From Acidobacteriota bacterium (lineage in GTDB: Bacteria > Acidobacteriota > UBA6911): 64,000 nucleotides of DNA. The position numbers and the translations under genes are program-made. Where the stretch lies: NCBI GenBank assembly GCA_963664705.1, contig OY761556.1:3552001-3616000 (forward strand). Reading direction: 5' to 3'. The notes beneath the pieces were generated by a model, which saw nothing but the letters and a program-made list of their open reading frames with translations, was not told the origin of the DNA and searched no databases. Numbering within the stretch: position 1 is the stretch's first letter; every line of letters starts with the position of its first letter. Of the stretch, positions 2,363 to 11,136 are shown piece after piece.

Positions 2363-4807
2363 ATGTCAGAAGATCGCTTGGAACAAGCCCTACAGGCAAT
2401 CAAAAATGAAGATGTAAGCCCTGAACAGCTCGCCGATGCGGCAGCCCGAGTGCGAAAGAACCTGGAAGATCCGTCCAGTGCACTGTGTTCAGAATTTCAA
2501 TCCGAAATCCACGACTACCTTGACGGACAGCTTGCCGCCAATCGGCGGATGTTATTGGAAGACCATCTGGGACGCTGCCCTGCCTGCAGAGCACGACTTG
2601 CCTCCCTCAAGGGAGCAGGGAATGTTGTTCCCATGCCTGCACGGCAGAAACCCGGTTGGCAGAAATGGGCAAAATGGGCCATCGCCGCCGCCGTATTACT
2701 GATGGCGGTCTATGTCGGACGCGACAATCTCGACAATCTGATGGCTCCCGGCGGCCCCAGGGCCACCGTAGCATCATTGCAGGGCTCTCTCTACCTGGTG
2801 CCCAGCGGTATGCTGCAGGTAGGCGCGCCGATTGCCGAGAACGCCGTGGTCCGCACCGGGCCTGGAACCCATGCCGTGCTTCGGCTGAGAGACGGATCTC
2901 GAGTTGAAATCAATGAAGGAACCGAGCTTTCCGTTCACGCGGCCTGGAGCGGCCAATCCATTCGCCTTCAGCGCGGTGACGTCATCGTGCAGGCCGCCAA
3001 GCAGCATCGCGGCCACCTCCGCGTGGAGACTCGCGACTCGGTCGCTTCGGTGAAGGGAACCATATTCGCCGTATCGACAGGCTTCGGCGGCACGCTGGTT
3101 TCGGTGGTTGAAGGCTCCGTTGCCGTGGCACAACCCAACACCAATGTGCTCCTCACGCCCGGACAACAGGCTGCATCCAACCCGGCGTTGGCAAGTTCCG
3201 TTCAGGATGCGGTTTCATGGAGTCCGGACGCACAGAACTACATTGCAGTAATGGCCTCGCTTGCGCACATTCAAAAACAGATGGCCTCCATGCCGTCGCC
3301 CTTGCTAAAAACGCAGTCAAACCTGCTTCAGTACATGCCTCCAAACATGATCGTGTATGGAGCCGTTCCGAACCTGAGCAACACGATCAACCAGGCTGTA
3401 GCGCTTGCAGAACAGCAATCGGCTGAGAATCCCGCTTTCAGTCAGTGGTGGAATGCCGGGGCTGGACAGGAACTGAAAAAACTCATCGGCAAGATCCAGT
3501 CGGTCACTCCGCTCCTCGGCGATGAGATCGTGTACGGAATCTGTGTAAATGGATCAACCGTGCCGGTCCTGATTGCGGAAGTACGCTCGGGAAAGCGCGA
3601 GGAGCTGAGCAACATATTAAACAGCCTTAATACCAGCGGAGGCGACGCGCTTCCATACAAGCTGAACGATAGCCTGCTGGCAGCGTCGAATTCAGCCGTC
3701 AACCTGGAATGGCTGATCACCCACATGGGCCAGGGCAGCGGCACGCCTTTTGCACAGGAAATCGCATCGCGCTATATGGACGGAGCGGCATGGCTTCTTG
3801 GAATCGACATGGAGTCGATTTTCTCAGAAAGCTTCACCGGCGGGAACAAAGCGCTGGCTTCGCAAAAGGTCAAGCATCTCTTCCTGGAACAGCGAAATGC
3901 TTCAGGAATTGAGGAGAATGAAATCGCTGTTTCCTTCAACGGGCCGCGCGAAGGCATCGCGTCATTTCTGGCAGGCACGGGGTCAGGAGGTGCAGCCGAA
4001 TATCTTTCAAGCGACTGCATCGCCGCCTTATACATGTCCACGCGAGAACCTCAACAGTTGTTCCAGGAACTGACGGCGCAGCTGACGAAAATATCACCAA
4101 CATTCCAGGGCGAATTTGCGGCAGCCCAGGCCAGAATGGGCATAGACTTTTCCAATGACCTGGCACGCGCACTGGGAACGGAATCGGCTATTTCACTGAA
4201 CGGATTATCCACCAGCGGGCCAGTGTGGACTATGGCGGGCATCGTAAACGATCAGGCCACGCTGGAGGCAACGATACGCAAGCTTGCAACCTTCATGAAC
4301 GCCGAACTGGAAAGGGCGGGCAGAACCGAACGCATACTCATTGAGCAGGAAATCGTGGATGGACGCACGTGGACGACCCTGAAACCCTCTGATCAGCCGG
4401 TCTCCGTCACATGGACCTACGACAGAGGCTACATTGTGGCCGGATCCAGCAGAGGCGTGGCTGCGAAAGCGATCGCAAACCGCAACGGCGGATCGTCGCT
4501 GCCGTGGTCACCCGCATTCCGACAGCAGTTGCCGGTCTCAGTCGGGCTGCATCCTTCAGGATTTGCCTGGTTGAACACGAGCGGAGCATTCCAGGGACTC
4601 GAGGCATTGATCCCCAATCCATTGATTCAGAAAATGGTGGCCGAGCGGGATCCGATTCTTGTGGCATTCAGCGGATTAACGGAACAAATTCGCGCCGTCA
4701 GCCGTACTCGATTAACGGGAATGGTAATGAATATGTTGCTACTGAGGAGTCTGGACCCCGCACACACGGGTTCGACTCAGGCAAATGCACAATCGGGTAT
4801 GCTCTAA
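2363..4807 (+). CDS. Anti-sigma factor: zf-HC2 (ZAS) + TM + FecR domain + large C-terminal periplasmic domain
   Basis: DYLDGQL...HLGRCPAC (HxxxCxxC), TM WAIAAAVLLMAVYV, FecR motifs LRDGSRVEINEGTEL and VKGTIFAV...VSVVEGSVAV. GGAGG RBS, 12 bp after the sigma gene. Confidence 0.88.
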   Translation: MSEDRLEQALQAIKNEDVSPEQLADAAARVRKNLEDPSSALCSEFQSEIHDYLDGQLAANRRMLLEDHLGRCPACRARLASLKGAGNVVPMPARQKPGWQKWAKWAIAAAVLLMAVYVGRDNLDNLMAPGGPRATVASLQGSLYLVPSGMLQVGAPIAENAVVRTGPGTHAVLRLRDGSRVEINEGTELSVHAAWSGQSIRLQRGDVIVQAAKQHRGHLRVETRDSVASVKGTIFAVSTGFGGTLVSVVEGSVAVAQPNTNVLLTPGQQAASNPALASSVQDAVSWSPDAQNYIAVMASLAHIQKQMASMPSPLLKTQSNLLQYMPPNMIVYGAVPNLSNTINQAVALAEQQSAENPAFSQWWNAGAGQELKKLIGKIQSVTPLLGDEIVYGICVNGSTVPVLIAEVRSGKREELSNILNSLNTSGGDALPYKLNDSLLAASNSAVNLEWLITHMGQGSGTPFAQEIASRYMDGAAWLLGIDMESIFSESFTGGNKALASQKVKHLFLEQRNASGIEENEIAVSFNGPREGIASFLAGTGSGGAAEYLSSDCIAALYMSTREPQQLFQELTAQLTKISPTFQGEFAAAQARMGIDFSNDLARALGTESAISLNGLSTSGPVWTMAGIVNDQATLEATIRKLATFMNAELERAGRTERILIEQEIVDGRTWTTLKPSDQPVSVTWTYDRGYIVAGSSRGVAAKAIANRNGGSSLPWSPAFRQQLPVSVGLHPSGFAWLNTSGAFQGLEALIPNPLIQKMVAERDPILVAFSGLTEQIRAVSRTRLTGMVMNMLLLRSLDPAHTGSTQANAQSGML

Positions 4808-5773
4808 ATGACTTCTGCAGTTGTTGAACTGGAAAATCTGAGAGTGAAACTCGGGCGGCGGGAAGTGCTGAAGGACATTTCCTGCCGCCTCGGCATTTCC
4901 GGACAGGGTAAAGCCATCGGACTCCTGGGACCTAACGGAGCCGGCAAATCCACGTTAATTCTGACCATGCTCGGCTTTCATAAGCCGGCAGCAGGAAGTA
5001 TTCGAGTACTCGGATTCGATTCTCGTCTCCAGATGCACGATGTCAGAACGCGGATCGGTTACATGCCCGAGACGGATTCGTTCATCGCAAACCTGACCGC
5101 CGTCTCCTTTCTACGCCTCATGGGTGAACTCTCCGGGCTTCCCGGCAAAGTTGCATTGGAGAAAGCGCACGAAGCTCTGTTCCACGTCGGTCTGGGTGAG
5201 GCCCGCTACCGCGAACTGAAAACCTATTCCCTGGGAATGAAGCAAATGGCCAAGCTGGCGCAGGCTATCGTGCACGGACCCGAACTGCTGATTCTCGATG
5301 AGCCTACCAATGGGCTCGATCCATCCGCCCGCCAACGCATGCTCCGGCTTGTTCGTGAGATGAGGGAGGAACAGGGCATGAACATCCTGCTTTGCTCCCA
5401 TCTGCTGCGTGACGTCGAACAGGTCTGCGATGAAGTAGTGATCATGAAGGATGGAATGATCGTGCACGAATGCAATCTCGAGGAAGAGCGCCGCTCAAAC
5501 AAGTCTTTCGTCGAACTTGAAGTCTACGGCAATGATGACAACCTCCGGAACACCCTCCCCGAAATCGGTGCGGAAGGCGTTACGGAAGGAAGCGGGCGCT
5601 GGCGCATCGTTCTTCCGCCAGCGGTGGAGATCCAGGCGTTGTGGAACCTGCTTGGCCGCCAGGACCTCTCGGTAAGAAAGCTTACCTACCGCAGGGATAC
5701 GCTGGAGGAAATCTTTCTGAAAGCCATGGGGCATATACAGCACACCCCCGGGGAAAACGCAGCCGCAAGATAG
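4808..5773 (+). CDS. ABC transporter ATP-binding protein
   Basis: Walker A GPNGAGKST, signature YSLGMKQ, Walker B LILDEP, H-loop SHLL. Confidence 0.95.
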   Translation: MTSAVVELENLRVKLGRREVLKDISCRLGISGQGKAIGLLGPNGAGKSTLILTMLGFHKPAAGSIRVLGFDSRLQMHDVRTRIGYMPETDSFIANLTAVSFLRLMGELSGLPGKVALEKAHEALFHVGLGEARYRELKTYSLGMKQMAKLAQAIVHGPELLILDEPTNGLDPSARQRMLRLVREMREEQGMNILLCSHLLRDVEQVCDEVVIMKDGMIVHECNLEEERRSNKSFVELEVYGNDDNLRNTLPEIGAEGVTEGSGRWRIVLPPAVEIQALWNLLGRQDLSVRKLTYRRDTLEEIFLKAMGHIQHTPGENAAAR

Positions 5774-5817: not shown

Positions 5818-6678
5818 ATGGCCGTTTATAAACGAGGATACCAGCGATACCAGGGGCCAACCAATTCACACTGGTCCCGCTTCATGGTATTGCCTCGTTT
5901 CGCATGGCAACGGGTCTTTCAGCAGCGTCTTGTCGTTCTCCTCATGGTGGTAGCCATGGTCTGGCCGCTGCTGTGCGCCATATTCATTTACCTCACCAAC
6001 CATGCCGAGCTGCTGAAAAGCGCCGCCAGGCAATTTCAGGACTTCATCCAGGTCAACGGCAACTTCTTCCTGGTTTTCATGTATGTCCAATCCGGTTTTG
6101 CCGTCCTGCTTGCCGCGATGACAGGGCCGGGACTGATTGCGCCCGATCTTGCAAACAACGCCCTGCCGCTTTATTTCAGTCGACCGCTCAGCCGAATGGA
6201 CTATGCACTGGCCCGGCTCTTAACCTTAGGCGGCCTTCTATCGCTGGTCACCATCGTACCAGGATTACTGCTCCTCGGGATGCAAGTGGGGATTGCAGGG
6301 CTGGACTGGCTCTTCTCCAATTGGAGACTTGGCCTGGGACTGGTAGTCGGTTTTGCATTGTGGATTCTGCTGGTCAGCCTGGTTGCAATGGCCAGCTCCG
6401 CATATGCTCGAATGAAAGCGGTCTCCGGTGGACTGGTGCTTGGATTCTTCTTCATCCTGAGCGGTCTATCCCAAATGATCAACAGCATATTCCGCGTCAC
6501 CTGGGGAAACGGGCTCAGCCCGCTCTGGGTATCCAGGCGGATCTGGTATGCGCTTTTTAGTGTCGAGCCCAAACCGGGTCCCGGTGTAGCGGCATGCATG
6601 TCCATGATTATTGCCATCATCCTTCTGCTGATTATTGTCATTGAACGGAAACTCCGTCCGGTAGAGGTGGTTTCGTGA
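5818..6678 (+). CDS. ABC-2 type transporter permease
   Basis: About 6 TM segments; motif LPLYFSRPLSRMDY; ATG at 5818 after GGAGGG. Confidence 0.88.
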   Translation: MAVYKRGYQRYQGPTNSHWSRFMVLPRFAWQRVFQQRLVVLLMVVAMVWPLLCAIFIYLTNHAELLKSAARQFQDFIQVNGNFFLVFMYVQSGFAVLLAAMTGPGLIAPDLANNALPLYFSRPLSRMDYALARLLTLGGLLSLVTIVPGLLLLGMQVGIAGLDWLFSNWRLGLGLVVGFALWILLVSLVAMASSAYARMKAVSGGLVLGFFFILSGLSQMINSIFRVTWGNGLSPLWVSRRIWYALFSVEPKPGPGVAACMSMIIAIILLLIIVIERKLRPVEVVS

Positions 6679-7607
6679 CCCAGCCCATGGTGGTATTTGA
6701 CGAGGTTTCGAAGTTCTACGGGGATGTCCTGGGCGTCAATCACGTGTCATTGAACATCCCTCCCGGCATCACCAGCCTTGTGGGACCCAACGGTTCTGGC
6801 AAAACGACTCTGATGAACCTGATGACCGGGCTTATACATCCCGATGACGGCTCCATACTGGTACGAGGGCTTTCGCCGCAGGATCCCGAACACCTGATGC
6901 GCATTACCGGATATGCGACTCAATATGACGCAGCTCCTCGCTGGGCAACGGGCTTCAGCTTCATTACCACAGGACTGCTTCTTTACGGATACGCGCGAGC
7001 CGAAGCGGAAGAAAAGGCCTGGAAGGCGCTGGAGCGGCTGGGCCTGACTGAGGCCGCACACAGGAAAATGGCCGCATATTCCAAAGGGATGCGGCAGCGA
7101 GTCCGGCTCGCCCAGGCTATCGCTCACGAACCGGACATACTCATTCTGGATGAACCGCTCAATGGACTGGATCCCTTGGTGCGCGCAGAGACGATTGCGC
7201 TTTTCCATGCCTGGGCAGCCCAGGGCCGCCACGTGATTCTTTCCAGCCACGTCCTTCAGGAAGTGGACGTCATCAGCAACCAGGTCGTACTGATCTCCAG
7301 CGGCATGATCGTGGCCGAAGGCAAGATTCGCGACGTGCGGGAAGAGATCCAGGAACACCCGAGCCAATACCTCGTCCGTTGCCGGGAGGCATCGCGTGTG
7401 GCCGCACTGCTGTTCAATGAAGATCACATCACCGAGGTACGCCTGAACGAGGATCGCCTGGGCTTGATGGTCATGACACGTGATCGCCAGCAGTTCTCGC
7501 GCGCCATCGGCCGGATTGCCCTGGATGGGCACACGATTGACAGCGTGATTCCCGCGGATGAAAACGTCGACGCGCTATACGAATACCTGATTGGAGAGGG
7601 ACGCTAG
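6675..7607 (+). CDS. ABC transporter ATP-binding protein
   Basis: GPNGSGKTT, YSKGMRQR, ILILDEP, SSH; GTGA overlap with the upstream stop. Confidence 0.95.
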   Translation: MTQPMVVFDEVSKFYGDVLGVNHVSLNIPPGITSLVGPNGSGKTTLMNLMTGLIHPDDGSILVRGLSPQDPEHLMRITGYATQYDAAPRWATGFSFITTGLLLYGYARAEAEEKAWKALERLGLTEAAHRKMAAYSKGMRQRVRLAQAIAHEPDILILDEPLNGLDPLVRAETIALFHAWAAQGRHVILSSHVLQEVDVISNQVVLISSGMIVAEGKIRDVREEIQEHPSQYLVRCREASRVAALLFNEDHITEVRLNEDRLGLMVMTRDRQQFSRAIGRIALDGHTIDSVIPADENVDALYEYLIGEGR

Positions 7608-9142
7608 TGGAAAACCGGTCCTGGATAAAGCAGGCATGGACAATTACCAAAATCGAGCTGAGGCGCGCTTTCTTTTCAAAGCGCGGGTTCTGGGTCTATG
7701 GTCTTGCACTGATACCAGCCCTGGCATTTTTTGCGCACGGAATCCAGTTGAAGATACGGCGGCAAAGCCTTTCCTCAAAAACGGGGCTCGTACAGCCCGC
7801 CCAGCTGGATAGCATTCGCGAAGGGGAAACGGCCGAAGCCATTATTGCTCGAATCGGCAAGGCATCATGGGATCAGGAATGGCCCAAATACAACAAGATC
7901 GATGTTCAGGGGAAGAACGGCGGCATTACTTCGCACAAGGTTGAGCCGGTTGTGGAGGCCCGATTCGTCAGGCTGAATGTGAGGGTACCATCCTACAACG
8001 GGGATCCAGCCGCACGAATTTATGAACTCGAAGTGTATGGCGACAGCGACTCCGTCAACCTGGCTCTCAACAAGCCGGCTACGGGCAGCACTCCCTGCAG
8101 CCCCTCCGAAGGCCCGGAGAAGGCTTTCAACGGCAGCGTCAAAGGCGGGGTCAGTGATCGCTGGTGCTCCAACGCGCCTCGAAAGTATCTCCAGGTGGAC
8201 CTGGGAACCGTCACCAAAATCAAACGCATTGTTGTCAAACACGCCAGTGCGGGCGGCGAGCGCGAGGAACTGGACTCGTCCCTATTCGACCTCCAGGCCA
8301 GCGTTGATGAACGCAAGTTTCTTACAATCGTAAACAGGGCGTCCACGCGTTTCATCGATGAAGTAGTCCAGCACCGTACCCTCAGCTACTTTGACGGTCG
8401 CCGCGAAGCAACGCTGGATTTCGATGAAGGAAAGCTCGTGTCCAGGCGGGTGCATCCGCTCATGGATTTCGAAGAAGACCGCGCCGTCTTTGCCGGTATT
8501 TTCCAATATTTCTATCTGCGCCTGGCCATTTTCTTCGGATGCCTCGGCATCTTCATGAATCTGTTTCGGGGCGAGATACTCGACCACACATTGCATTTCT
8601 GGTTCCTTGCACCGGCTCGCCGCACGGTGCTGCTCCTGGGCAAATATGGAGCCGGATTGATCGCTTCCACCATAATCTTTGGCGGAGGCACTCTTCTGTG
8701 TTTTACGATACTGCTCCAGATGCATGACCCGGTGGAAGTCCATGCCTTTTGGCAGACCGCCGGCGTCAGCCATGCGTTCTGGTATGTCGCAGCCGCTGTG
8801 CTGGGATGCCTGGGCTATGGCAGCGTCTTCCTCGCGGCAGGTCTGTTGATGAAGAATCCCATTATTCCGGCCGCGGTCCTGGTGGTTTGGGAGGCTATCA
8901 ACGGGTTTCTCCCCGAAATTCTCCAGAAATTGAGCGTGCTGTATTACCTCCAGTGTTTGTGCCCCGTCCCGGCACCGATGGACTCCGACATGCCCGGGCT
9001 GCTGAAACTACTGCTCAACCCGGCAGCCCCGGTTTCCCGTACGGGAGCCATATTCGGAATTCTCTCGCTTACAGCCATCGTTCTGTGGATAGCAAGCGTT
9101 GCCATTCGCCGCATGGAGGTATCCTACTCCACGGAAGCATAA
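7607..9142 (+). CDS. ABC-2 type permease with inserted F5/8 type C (discoidin/CBM32) domain
   Basis: N-terminal ELRRAF plus TM; C-terminal permease half (GEILDHTLHFWFLAPARR..LLLGKY). Extracytoplasmic loop has ARFVRLNV..ARIYELEVYG and NLALNKPATGS..RWCS..YLQVDLG. Confidence 0.85.
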   Translation: MENRSWIKQAWTITKIELRRAFFSKRGFWVYGLALIPALAFFAHGIQLKIRRQSLSSKTGLVQPAQLDSIREGETAEAIIARIGKASWDQEWPKYNKIDVQGKNGGITSHKVEPVVEARFVRLNVRVPSYNGDPAARIYELEVYGDSDSVNLALNKPATGSTPCSPSEGPEKAFNGSVKGGVSDRWCSNAPRKYLQVDLGTVTKIKRIVVKHASAGGEREELDSSLFDLQASVDERKFLTIVNRASTRFIDEVVQHRTLSYFDGRREATLDFDEGKLVSRRVHPLMDFEEDRAVFAGIFQYFYLRLAIFFGCLGIFMNLFRGEILDHTLHFWFLAPARRTVLLLGKYGAGLIASTIIFGGGTLLCFTILLQMHDPVEVHAFWQTAGVSHAFWYVAAAVLGCLGYGSVFLAAGLLMKNPIIPAAVLVVWEAINGFLPEILQKLSVLYYLQCLCPVPAPMDSDMPGLLKLLLNPAAPVSRTGAIFGILSLTAIVLWIASVAIRRMEVSYSTEA

Positions 9143-9175: not shown

Positions 9176-11050
9176 CTAATAGCTCAAGCCATAGCCATAC
9201 GGGAAGAGCGGGTCATATTTCGTTTTAGGAACATGGATATTGAGTGGCAATTGTTCCATGGACTTTGGCCAGGTAAACGATAGCTTTCCAGTCGGCTTGT
9301 AATCACCGAACAGCACATCCGTAATACCCTGCCCTTCCGTTCCGGGAAGAAAGGCTGCGACGAATGCATCTGCTCGAGGCAGCGCGTCCTTGATGATCAT
9401 CGGTCGGCCGGAAATGAGAACCACAACAACCGGGATACCCGCCTTCTTTGCATTCTCGATGGCCTTCACGTCGTCGGCATCCAGCGCTAGATCGGACCGG
9501 TCTCCAACGCCCTCGGCATAGGGGCGTTCGCCCACCACCACCACTGCCAGAGAAGCACCCTTCGCCCCGGTTCCATCAGCGGAAAAAGTGATCTTGGTTC
9601 GGTTTGAAACCGCAGATTTGATCGCCTGCAGCACCGTTGTCCCTCCGGGCGTCACGGCGCCGCTTTTCCCCTGCCAGAGCACGGTCCACCCGCCACACTG
9701 ATTCCCGATATCATCCGCATTTTTTCCCGCAACGTGGATTCGGGCGACTGTCTTGGAAATCGGCAGTGTTTTTTGATCGTTTTTCAGCAAAACCAGCGAT
9801 TTTCGCACCGCTTCTCTAGCTACTGCGCGGTGCTCGGCCGATCCGAAGTTTTTGTGGAGTTTCCGGTCTGCCATTGGAGACCGGCTCTTGTCCATCAGCC
9901 CCATTGCGAATTTGACACGCAGAATTCGAGCAACGGCATCATCGATTCTCGACATCGGAATCTTGCCTTCCCCGACAAGCGTCTTCAGGTTGTTGAAGAA
10001 ATCCCGATATTCTGTCGGCACCATCGCCATATCCATCCCGGCGTTGATCGATATCGCAATCGCTCCCTTCGGATCTTTGGGATTGATCTGGTTGATCGCG
10101 TTATAGTCCGAAATAAGAAACCCTTCGAATCCCAATTCTTCCTTCAGGATTTCAGTCAAAAGTCGCTTGCTGGCGGAACAGCGAACTCCATTCCATGTGC
10201 TATAAGAAGGCATGATGGTGCCAACTCCCGACCGGATCGCGCGGATATAACCGGGCAAATGGATGCGGCGCAATGTAGCTTCGTCGGCCTTTGTATCGCC
10301 TTGATCCAGCCACAATTCCGGTTTTGCATTCGAAGGCATGCCCGGACGCGGTGCGTTGCTGGCGGACGTTCCGCCGTCGCCGATAAAGTGCTTCGCGCAT
10401 GCCAGGATCGAGAGCGGATCGCTCAAATCGGTTCCCTGCAGGCCGCGAACGGCGGCTTCACCCAATTCCTGCACGACATTGGGGTCTTCAGAAAATCCCT
10501 CGTAGGTTCTGCCCCAGCGGATATCCTGTGGAGCGGCTACACAGGGGCTGAAGGTCCACTGTATCCCGGTAGCTCTCACTTCCTCCGCGGTGATACGCCC
10601 GATTTTCTCGACCAGAGCTTTATCGCGCGTGCAACCGAGCGCGATATTGTGAGGAAATAGCACGGCGCCTTGAACATTGCTATGTCCGTGTACGGCATCG
10701 ATCCCATACAAGATCGGAATTGCCAGTCTTGTTTTCAGCGCCTCGTTTTGGGCTTTATCGTACAGGTCTGTCCAGGCCTTCAGCGTGTTGCCTTCGGCAG
10801 GATCGGAATCGCCCCCGCTGAGAACCGATCCGATGAAGTACTTTTGCATATCGCCGGGATTCTTTAAAACCGGTCCCTGCTCCGGTTGAGTCATCTGGCC
10901 GATCTTTTCTTCCAGAGTCATTTTCGAAAGCAGTTCTTTTACCTGAGGATCAAAGGAAGACAATCGTTTTGAAACCGGCGGGACCGAACCCACCTGAACG
11001 CCTACTAGTAGAAGAATGCTGATCGCAGCTGCAGGAACATATGATTTCAT
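9176..11050 (-). CDS. Glycoside hydrolase family 3 beta-glucosidase / beta-glucan exohydrolase, secreted
   Basis: [36 protein letters not shown], nucleophile motif [13 protein letters not shown]; N-terminal signal peptide. Confidence 0.93.
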
Positions 11051-11075
11051 ATTGTGATTCCCCTTGAAATTTACG

Positions 11076-11136
11076 ATTTGCAATTTACGGTTGACGATTG
11101 AATGAGCTTTTCAATCGCCAACCGCACATTGCAAAT
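11076..11136. repeat. Long imperfect inverted repeat with ACGATT sub-repeats
   Basis: ATTTGCAAT/ATTGCAAAT outer arms and CGGTTGACGATTGAA/TTCAATCGCCAACCG inner arms, between two co-directional genes. Confidence 0.7.

Follow-up and report, generated by a model that had tools for sequence, protein, structure and literature searches.

A circularly permuted CBM32 domain of likely array origin as an optional, possibly glycan-binding head of an acidobacterial ABC permease

We analysed a 64,000-nucleotide stretch of an Acidobacteriota genome (hereafter, the window; features lie on its + strand unless marked −) and found that an ABC-2 permease encoded at 7607–9142 carries, in a large loop, a circularly permuted CBM32 domain whose two halves follow each other in reversed order. 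This domain, probably array-derived and predicted to sit on a beta-stalk of a BamE-like host domain, is likely an optional glycan-binding head of the permease. The structure and origin of the permuted head are very probably as described below; glycan binding itself is a real but tentative possibility.

Reversed CBM32 halves and predicted structure of the head

The part of the CBM32 that is normally C-terminal (canonical profile positions 92–139) occupies aa 97–145 of the permease (7895–8041), its first residues emerging from a predicted beta-stalk. It is followed by a short linker (8042–8056) that leads from the old C terminus to the old N terminus, like an inter-repeat linker of the donor arrays described below, and then by the part that is normally N-terminal (canonical profile positions 2–96; aa 151–245; 8057–8341). 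The canonical profile, built from 381 domains of the closest CBM32 subfamily in long glycosidase-type proteins and in a further set of hits, matched the first piece at E 3.5e-15 and the second at E 5.5e-39. Together, the pieces cover all segments of the beta-sandwich (profile positions 2–96 and 92–139 of 140) and overlap by approximately five profile positions (92–96). The same search found the reversed order in 120/120 sequences of the family, which comprises the window's protein and 119 homologs at 62–84% identity. As the canonical N-to-C strand order is absent, the domain is a permuted homolog and a non-canonical member of CBM32. The sequence motifs from which a preliminary description had proposed a permuted CBM32 in an ABC permease loop are in frame within the ORF 7607–9142, at the positions where it had placed them, and the permutation itself is confirmed by the profile order in 120/120 sequences and by the predicted structure.

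That description had also predicted two partial Pfam hits in reversed order. On the full protein, PF00754 recovered only the N-terminal half (profile positions 2–82, aa 158–243; 45.4 bits versus a cut-off of 28.2), whereas the subfamily profile recovered both reversed pieces. On the isolated loop, PF00754 gave two stretches at a loose threshold of E ≤ 1, the second without coordinates, and phmmer against the PDB returned two stretches in swapped order, the second weak, for the CBM32 domains of EndoD (2xqx) and AlyB (5zu6). Nowhere did a profile run colinearly over the whole insert, and a colinear canonical CBM32 is excluded by the reversed profile mapping together with the half-only structural alignment described below. 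An assembly artefact or chance is likewise excluded, given that 119 homologs of 62–84% identity share the architecture; one public contig, possibly the source of this DNA, also carries the gene unaltered. A recent foreign insertion in this genome is rejected as well: the GC content is flat over the gene (0.535–0.58), and the insert is old.

Elsewhere in the same genome (G000:C1:5805924-5806298, −), another F5/8 type C domain appears as two colinear pieces in a single 723-aa frame; the gap of approximately 55 nt between them may reflect a short insertion into the domain.

AlphaFold2 modelled the protein with a mean pLDDT of 84.3 (90.9 for the head). Long strands at aa 88–98 and 250–262 of the model are read as a two-strand stalk carrying the CBM32, and the head is predicted to be one closed beta-sandwich on this stalk, in the periplasm. 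Comparison of the head model with 48,161 chains by VIA-align gave residues 643–779 of 6EON as the top row (model 43–177, Z 12.8, rmsd 2.6, 128 residues, 18% identity), a 2017 structure that could have influenced the prediction of the head. The superposition of 128 residues supports the suggested single permuted beta-sandwich, which appears complete in the predicted structure. Canonical CBM32s and discoidins aligned only with model residues ~85–190 (86–101 residues, Z 5.4–8.4), as expected when a sequential aligner faces a permutant. Foldseek likewise aligns sequentially and should miss permuted domains; it returned nothing at E ≤ 0.001 for either model, CBM32 included, and we gave this null result little weight.

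The insert interrupts a BamE/BLIP-like domain, of which the N-terminal part comprises two short helices and the first strand (aa 62–92; 7790–7882) and the C-terminal part three strands (aa 250–286; 8354–8464). VIA-align matched this host domain to BamE (8adg_E; Z 8.6, rmsd 2.1, 64 residues), with an aligned range that spans the insert, and further to a BLIP-like protein (Z 8.4), BtiO (Z 7.8) and OsmE (Z 7.3). The BamE/SmpA, OsmE and BLIP-like rows (8adg_E, 3d4e, 4dm5 and 5wam) have Z scores of 6.6–8.6 over 61–69 residues; values around 8 do not settle the assignment by themselves, but sequence matches to BamE and BLIP point the same way. In insert-free homologous loops, PF04355 matched 15/22 at E ≤ 0.5 (best, 1.2e-7). 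The window's protein itself gave no PF04355 match, and most members score under the Pfam cut-off. The split BamE/SmpA-like motif proposed earlier is thus supported by comparison with permeases whose loop is uninterrupted, as well as by the alignment with 8adg_E.

Cys164 (8096–8098) and Cys187 (8165–8167) form a conserved pair (8096–8167) in the normally N-terminal half of the CBM32. C164 is present in 120/120 and C187 in 119/120 family sequences, compared with 98% and 100% of the donor domains. A C164–C187 disulfide is plausible from this conservation and, given the frequency of the pair in the donors, would be nothing special; a special adaptation is excluded because the pair was inherited from them.

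Host permease, its operon and the distribution of the head

The 511-aa permease (ABC-2 permease 2), characterized from its ORF, Foldseek matches and hydropathy, is encoded by the last of six co-directed genes. The preceding five encode an ECF-type sigma factor (1859–2350, approximate start), an 814-aa anti-sigma-like protein with zf-HC2, FecR and DUF3352 domains (2363–4807), ABC ATPase 1 (4808–5773), ABC-2 permease 1, which has no head and a weak PF12679 match (5818–6678), and ABC ATPase 2 (6675–7607). A scan for promoters and terminators gave results at chance level. Foldseek matched the membrane part of the head-bearing permease to NosY (7o0y_D; prob 1.00, E only 9.5e-3), and all NosY/ABCG matches had prob 1.00 at weak E values (~0.01–0.06). 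PF12698 and PF12679 scored below the cut-off on the permease, and PF00005 above it in the neighbouring ATPase genes. On the basis of the membrane fold and the linked ATPase genes, the protein belongs to the type V ABC-2 permeases with a NosY/ABCG-like fold. Hydropathy analysis revealed one hydrophobic segment at aa 28–46, none at aa 47–290 and more from 298 onward, which places a 245-aa loop between the first two membrane helices. In the topology of type V transporters, the loop between these helices lies in the periplasm. Given the NosY/ABCG-type fold and the lack of a hydrophobic segment at aa 47–290, the head-bearing loop likely faces the periplasm, as had been proposed.

The operon is kept in the 60 loci with more than 6 kb of upstream sequence (sigma factor, 57/60; anti-sigma, 59/60; other ABC genes, 60/60). 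In the head-less regions, the sigma factor is found in 14/16, one region stopping before this gene, and the anti-sigma in 15/16. The operon thus also exists in versions that lack any head or bear just the BamE-like one, and its completeness in these regions indicates that the head is an accessory to an older operon. The anti-sigma-like protein is ~860–900 aa long in most head-less operons, compared with 814 aa here; no mention of DUF3352 was found in the literature searched. One further locus (L145:6728-8670) encodes a head-less permease 2 and ATPase 2, with no sigma, anti-sigma or permease 1 gene in 10 kb. In the window, a GH3 beta-glucosidase-like gene (9176–11083, −) is convergent with the operon and adjoins it in only 6/80 related loci; a functional tie to this gene is unsupported, GH3 being present in 4/60 long loci.

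Among 401 sampled genomes of the phylum, the permease membrane part occurs in 119 and the insert in 3, the source genome of the window included. A genome scan found at least 519 relatives, of which 80 were kept, all from Acidobacteriota: 60 with the full permuted head, 3 with a partial or frameshifted head, 1 truncated and 16 with the BamE-like domain alone. In more distant homologs, the loop is only 10–18 aa long. On a phylogeny built from the membrane part of the permease in 106 rows (three duplicates and one truncated row omitted, root set on 17 loop-less rows), the 63 permuted rows form one clade with L092 and L004 (99/94; 100% of 200 bootstrap trees). The CBM32 is gone except for its first few residues at L092:2655-3782, and is replaced by a proline-rich loop at L004:880-2175; these absences are likely losses, and the tree thus contains one gain and two losses of the domain. 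With the chosen root, the order of events runs from no head to a BamE-like head and then to the CBM32.

A sister permease family (L012:457-2166, also L149:8154-9863; proteins P0388-P0466; 570–579 aa) contains another insert, a beta-sandwich of ~200 aa, in the same hairpin. The L012 insert is unrelated to CBM32 (score −0.5), is covered by no Pfam family and resembles a GH38 alpha-mannosidase accessory domain (E 2e-10 pairwise, 28%) and AziU2 (E 4e-4). The best 120 L012 homologs, of which the named ones are Terriglobales, comprise 78 with a long loop, 36 with a short loop and 6 partial forms; on a tree of low resolution, long forms are intermixed with 366-aa short forms, with 17 changes between the two, no fewer than 3 of them forced. 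The presence of an unrelated glycosidase module at the same hairpin suggests that the loop probably acts as a socket for optional modules.

Possible functions of the head

We propose that the permuted CBM32 sits on its beta-stalk in the first hairpin of the BamE/BLIP-like periplasmic domain of a heterodimeric ABC-2 complex, which the sigma/anti-sigma pair would control in an envelope response. The head would bind a cell-surface or environmental glycan, thereby tethering the complex or tuning what it handles, and would be dispensable for the core activity of the complex. Several observations are consistent with glycan binding. Two glycosidase-derived modules occur at one site, and the CBM32 halves are better conserved (column conservation 0.74) than the host domain (0.67–0.70) and the stalk (0.52). 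Polar residues have been retained from the donors (H212, R137, D184 and E218, in addition to the Cys pair), and residue 130, in a loop that leads to the last strand, is mostly Tyr (98/120 family sequences and 53/62 genome-derived rows), versus a donor consensus of Gln. Against glycan binding stand a head that appears dispensable, was lost twice and is absent from most homologous operons, the lack of a conserved glycosidase nearby, and the variability of position 185, which is basic in 98% of donors and Arg/Lys in only 39/62 genome-derived rows. The candidate sugar-binding residues of the apex loops comprise the conserved H212, R137, D184 and Y130 and the variable position 185. Position 191 is Trp in 75/120 relatives, and the window's own protein has no Trp there. 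K172, N175, G176 and E142, putative ligands of a structural calcium site, are conserved. The study of the EndoD CBM32 reportedly found no ligand for that module. According to PMC5291390, sequence does not allow the ligand of a CBM32 to be predicted, and some CBM32s are non-functional; the title of the EndoD paper, as given in PMC4161441, calls that module 'putative'.

A somewhat unlikely explanation is that the insert is a folded non-lectin passenger or a protein-contact module, the hairpin tolerating any compact beta-sandwich with close termini, such that conservation would reflect folding or the binding of a protein partner. The head-less majority of operons, the losses in L092 and L004, the interleaving of long and short forms in the second family (17 changes, at least 3 forced) and the erosion of position 185 would all fit such a passenger, as would a host fold common to the protein-binding modules BamE, BLIP and BtiO. 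However, both captured domains derive from accessory modules of glycosidases, conservation of the insert equals or exceeds that of its host domain across proteins of 62–84% identity, and a proline-rich or short loop would suffice as a spacer. We retain the optional glycan-binding head as the preferred reading. A broader version of it, which we consider unlikely as a whole, treats the first hairpin of the BamE-like domain as an evolutionary socket on the conserved ABC/ECF-sigma module of Acidobacteriota, with two independent captures of mannosidase-type accessory beta-sandwiches, one of them circularly permuted, as swappable glycan-recognition heads. These would link the transporter and its sigma factor to a sugar, as signal or as substrate. 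It is quite improbable that the ABC complex is a sensor and not an exporter, with glycan at the head signalling to the anti-sigma and freeing the ECF sigma factor: the six genes stay together in 57–60/60 long loci, FecR and DUF3352 form large regions of the anti-sigma and a single site has received two different glycosidase modules, but the operon is intact without the head, and sigma-controlled ABC operons are commonly outputs of a regulon.

That one hairpin has taken up glycosidase modules more than once offers a concrete, testable hint as to the ligand of this uncharacterised sigma/anti-sigma/ABC operon, the permease of which spans 119/401 of the phylum genomes sampled; should the head prove not to bind, it would be a structural curiosity assembled from known parts.

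Origin of the permutation and comparison with known systems

Aligned with the tandem CBM32 arrays of GH92/GH38-type glycosidases, the insert runs colinearly over the junction between repeats (~51%). Candidate donors were sought among proteins of >895 aa (309/701 candidates scored, best 120 taken). The best 120 of the 309 are mostly GH92 alpha-1,2-mannosidases, with GH38, PKD and other proteins, and all contain repeats (two in 104, three in 12, four in 3, and one and a half in 1). This ranking by summed score favours arrays: a single domain is present in 51/150 representatives of another hit set. Single BLAST alignments run through the array junctions at 50–54% identity over 135–156 aa, and these junctions resemble that of the insert itself. 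The linker has 5–6 residues in 112/112 matched family members; donor linkers have 3–54 residues (5–6 in 24/127). An isolated C-then-N order was limited, in these 150 representatives, to the permease family and two array fragments that are truncated, and every permease there contained at most the equivalent of one domain. The insert was likely cut once from a tandem array of a glycosidase, as judged from sequence comparison. This origin, already suggested in the preliminary description, is well supported by arrays that share the junction and align colinearly over the whole insert, and is the simplest reading, duplication in place giving the same product. That the permutation arose in the permease, through insertion, duplication and trimming of an intact CBM32, is improbable: the overlap of ~5 profile positions (92–96) could come from either route, but no permease with an intact or 1.5–2-fold CBM32 was found in 120 homologs, 80 genome loci and 150 representatives, and arrays that already contain this junction are common. 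The head represents a cleanly traceable natural circular permutation, in which the donor arrays and their junction can be seen, as can the one gain and the losses that followed it.

The best structural match, residues 643–779 of 6EON, is the C-terminal domain of the Bacteroides GH35 beta-galactosidase BT0290. A Bacteroides finegoldii GH35 (L134:1893-4232) that matches the 6EON C terminus at E 6e-52 also matches a sialidase CBM32 in two reversed pieces, indicating that 6EON 643–779 is another natural CBM32 permutant. CBM32 has thus been permuted in nature at least twice, and this precedent supports the foldability of the permease insert and lowers its novelty. The two cases share the permuted CBM32; 6EON belongs to a different CBM32 subfamily and is a terminal enzyme domain, in contrast to an insert in a permease, and in our reading of the alignments it was cut approximately one strand earlier. 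The subfamily profile barely detects the GH35 permutant (E ~0.002), and the different subfamily and 18% identity argue for an independent event. A viral scan for GH35 gave no match. We found no publication that calls the 6EON domain permuted, its structure paper lying outside the literature searched; nor did that literature (titles and abstract openings, with subscription papers mostly outside) yield a description of the permease, the operon or the permuted CBM32.

The membrane fold, the large first inter-helix loop and the paired ATPases are shared with type V ABC transporters (NosY of NosDFY, ABCG); in contrast to NosDFY and ABCG, two ATPases and two permeases are here encoded behind an ECF sigma factor and a zf-HC2/FecR/DUF3352 anti-sigma. 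The host domain has the helix–helix–sheet fold common to BamE/SmpA, OsmE and BLIP-like proteins, but is no BamE: rather than an outer-membrane lipoprotein of the BAM complex, it forms a loop within a polytopic permease of the inner membrane, and an insert of 150 aa splits it. The CBM32 repeats (PF00754) of GH92/GH38 proteins are ~50% identical to the insert across both halves and have in common with it the Cys pair, the HA-x-AGGE and ARIYE motifs and the short inter-repeat junction; the CBM32 of EndoD (2XQX), the best PDB sequence match (E 2.1e-8), is a solved relative. Unlike these donors, in which the domains are appended to an enzyme, the insert has its halves reversed, is present as a single copy and is nested in a transporter loop.
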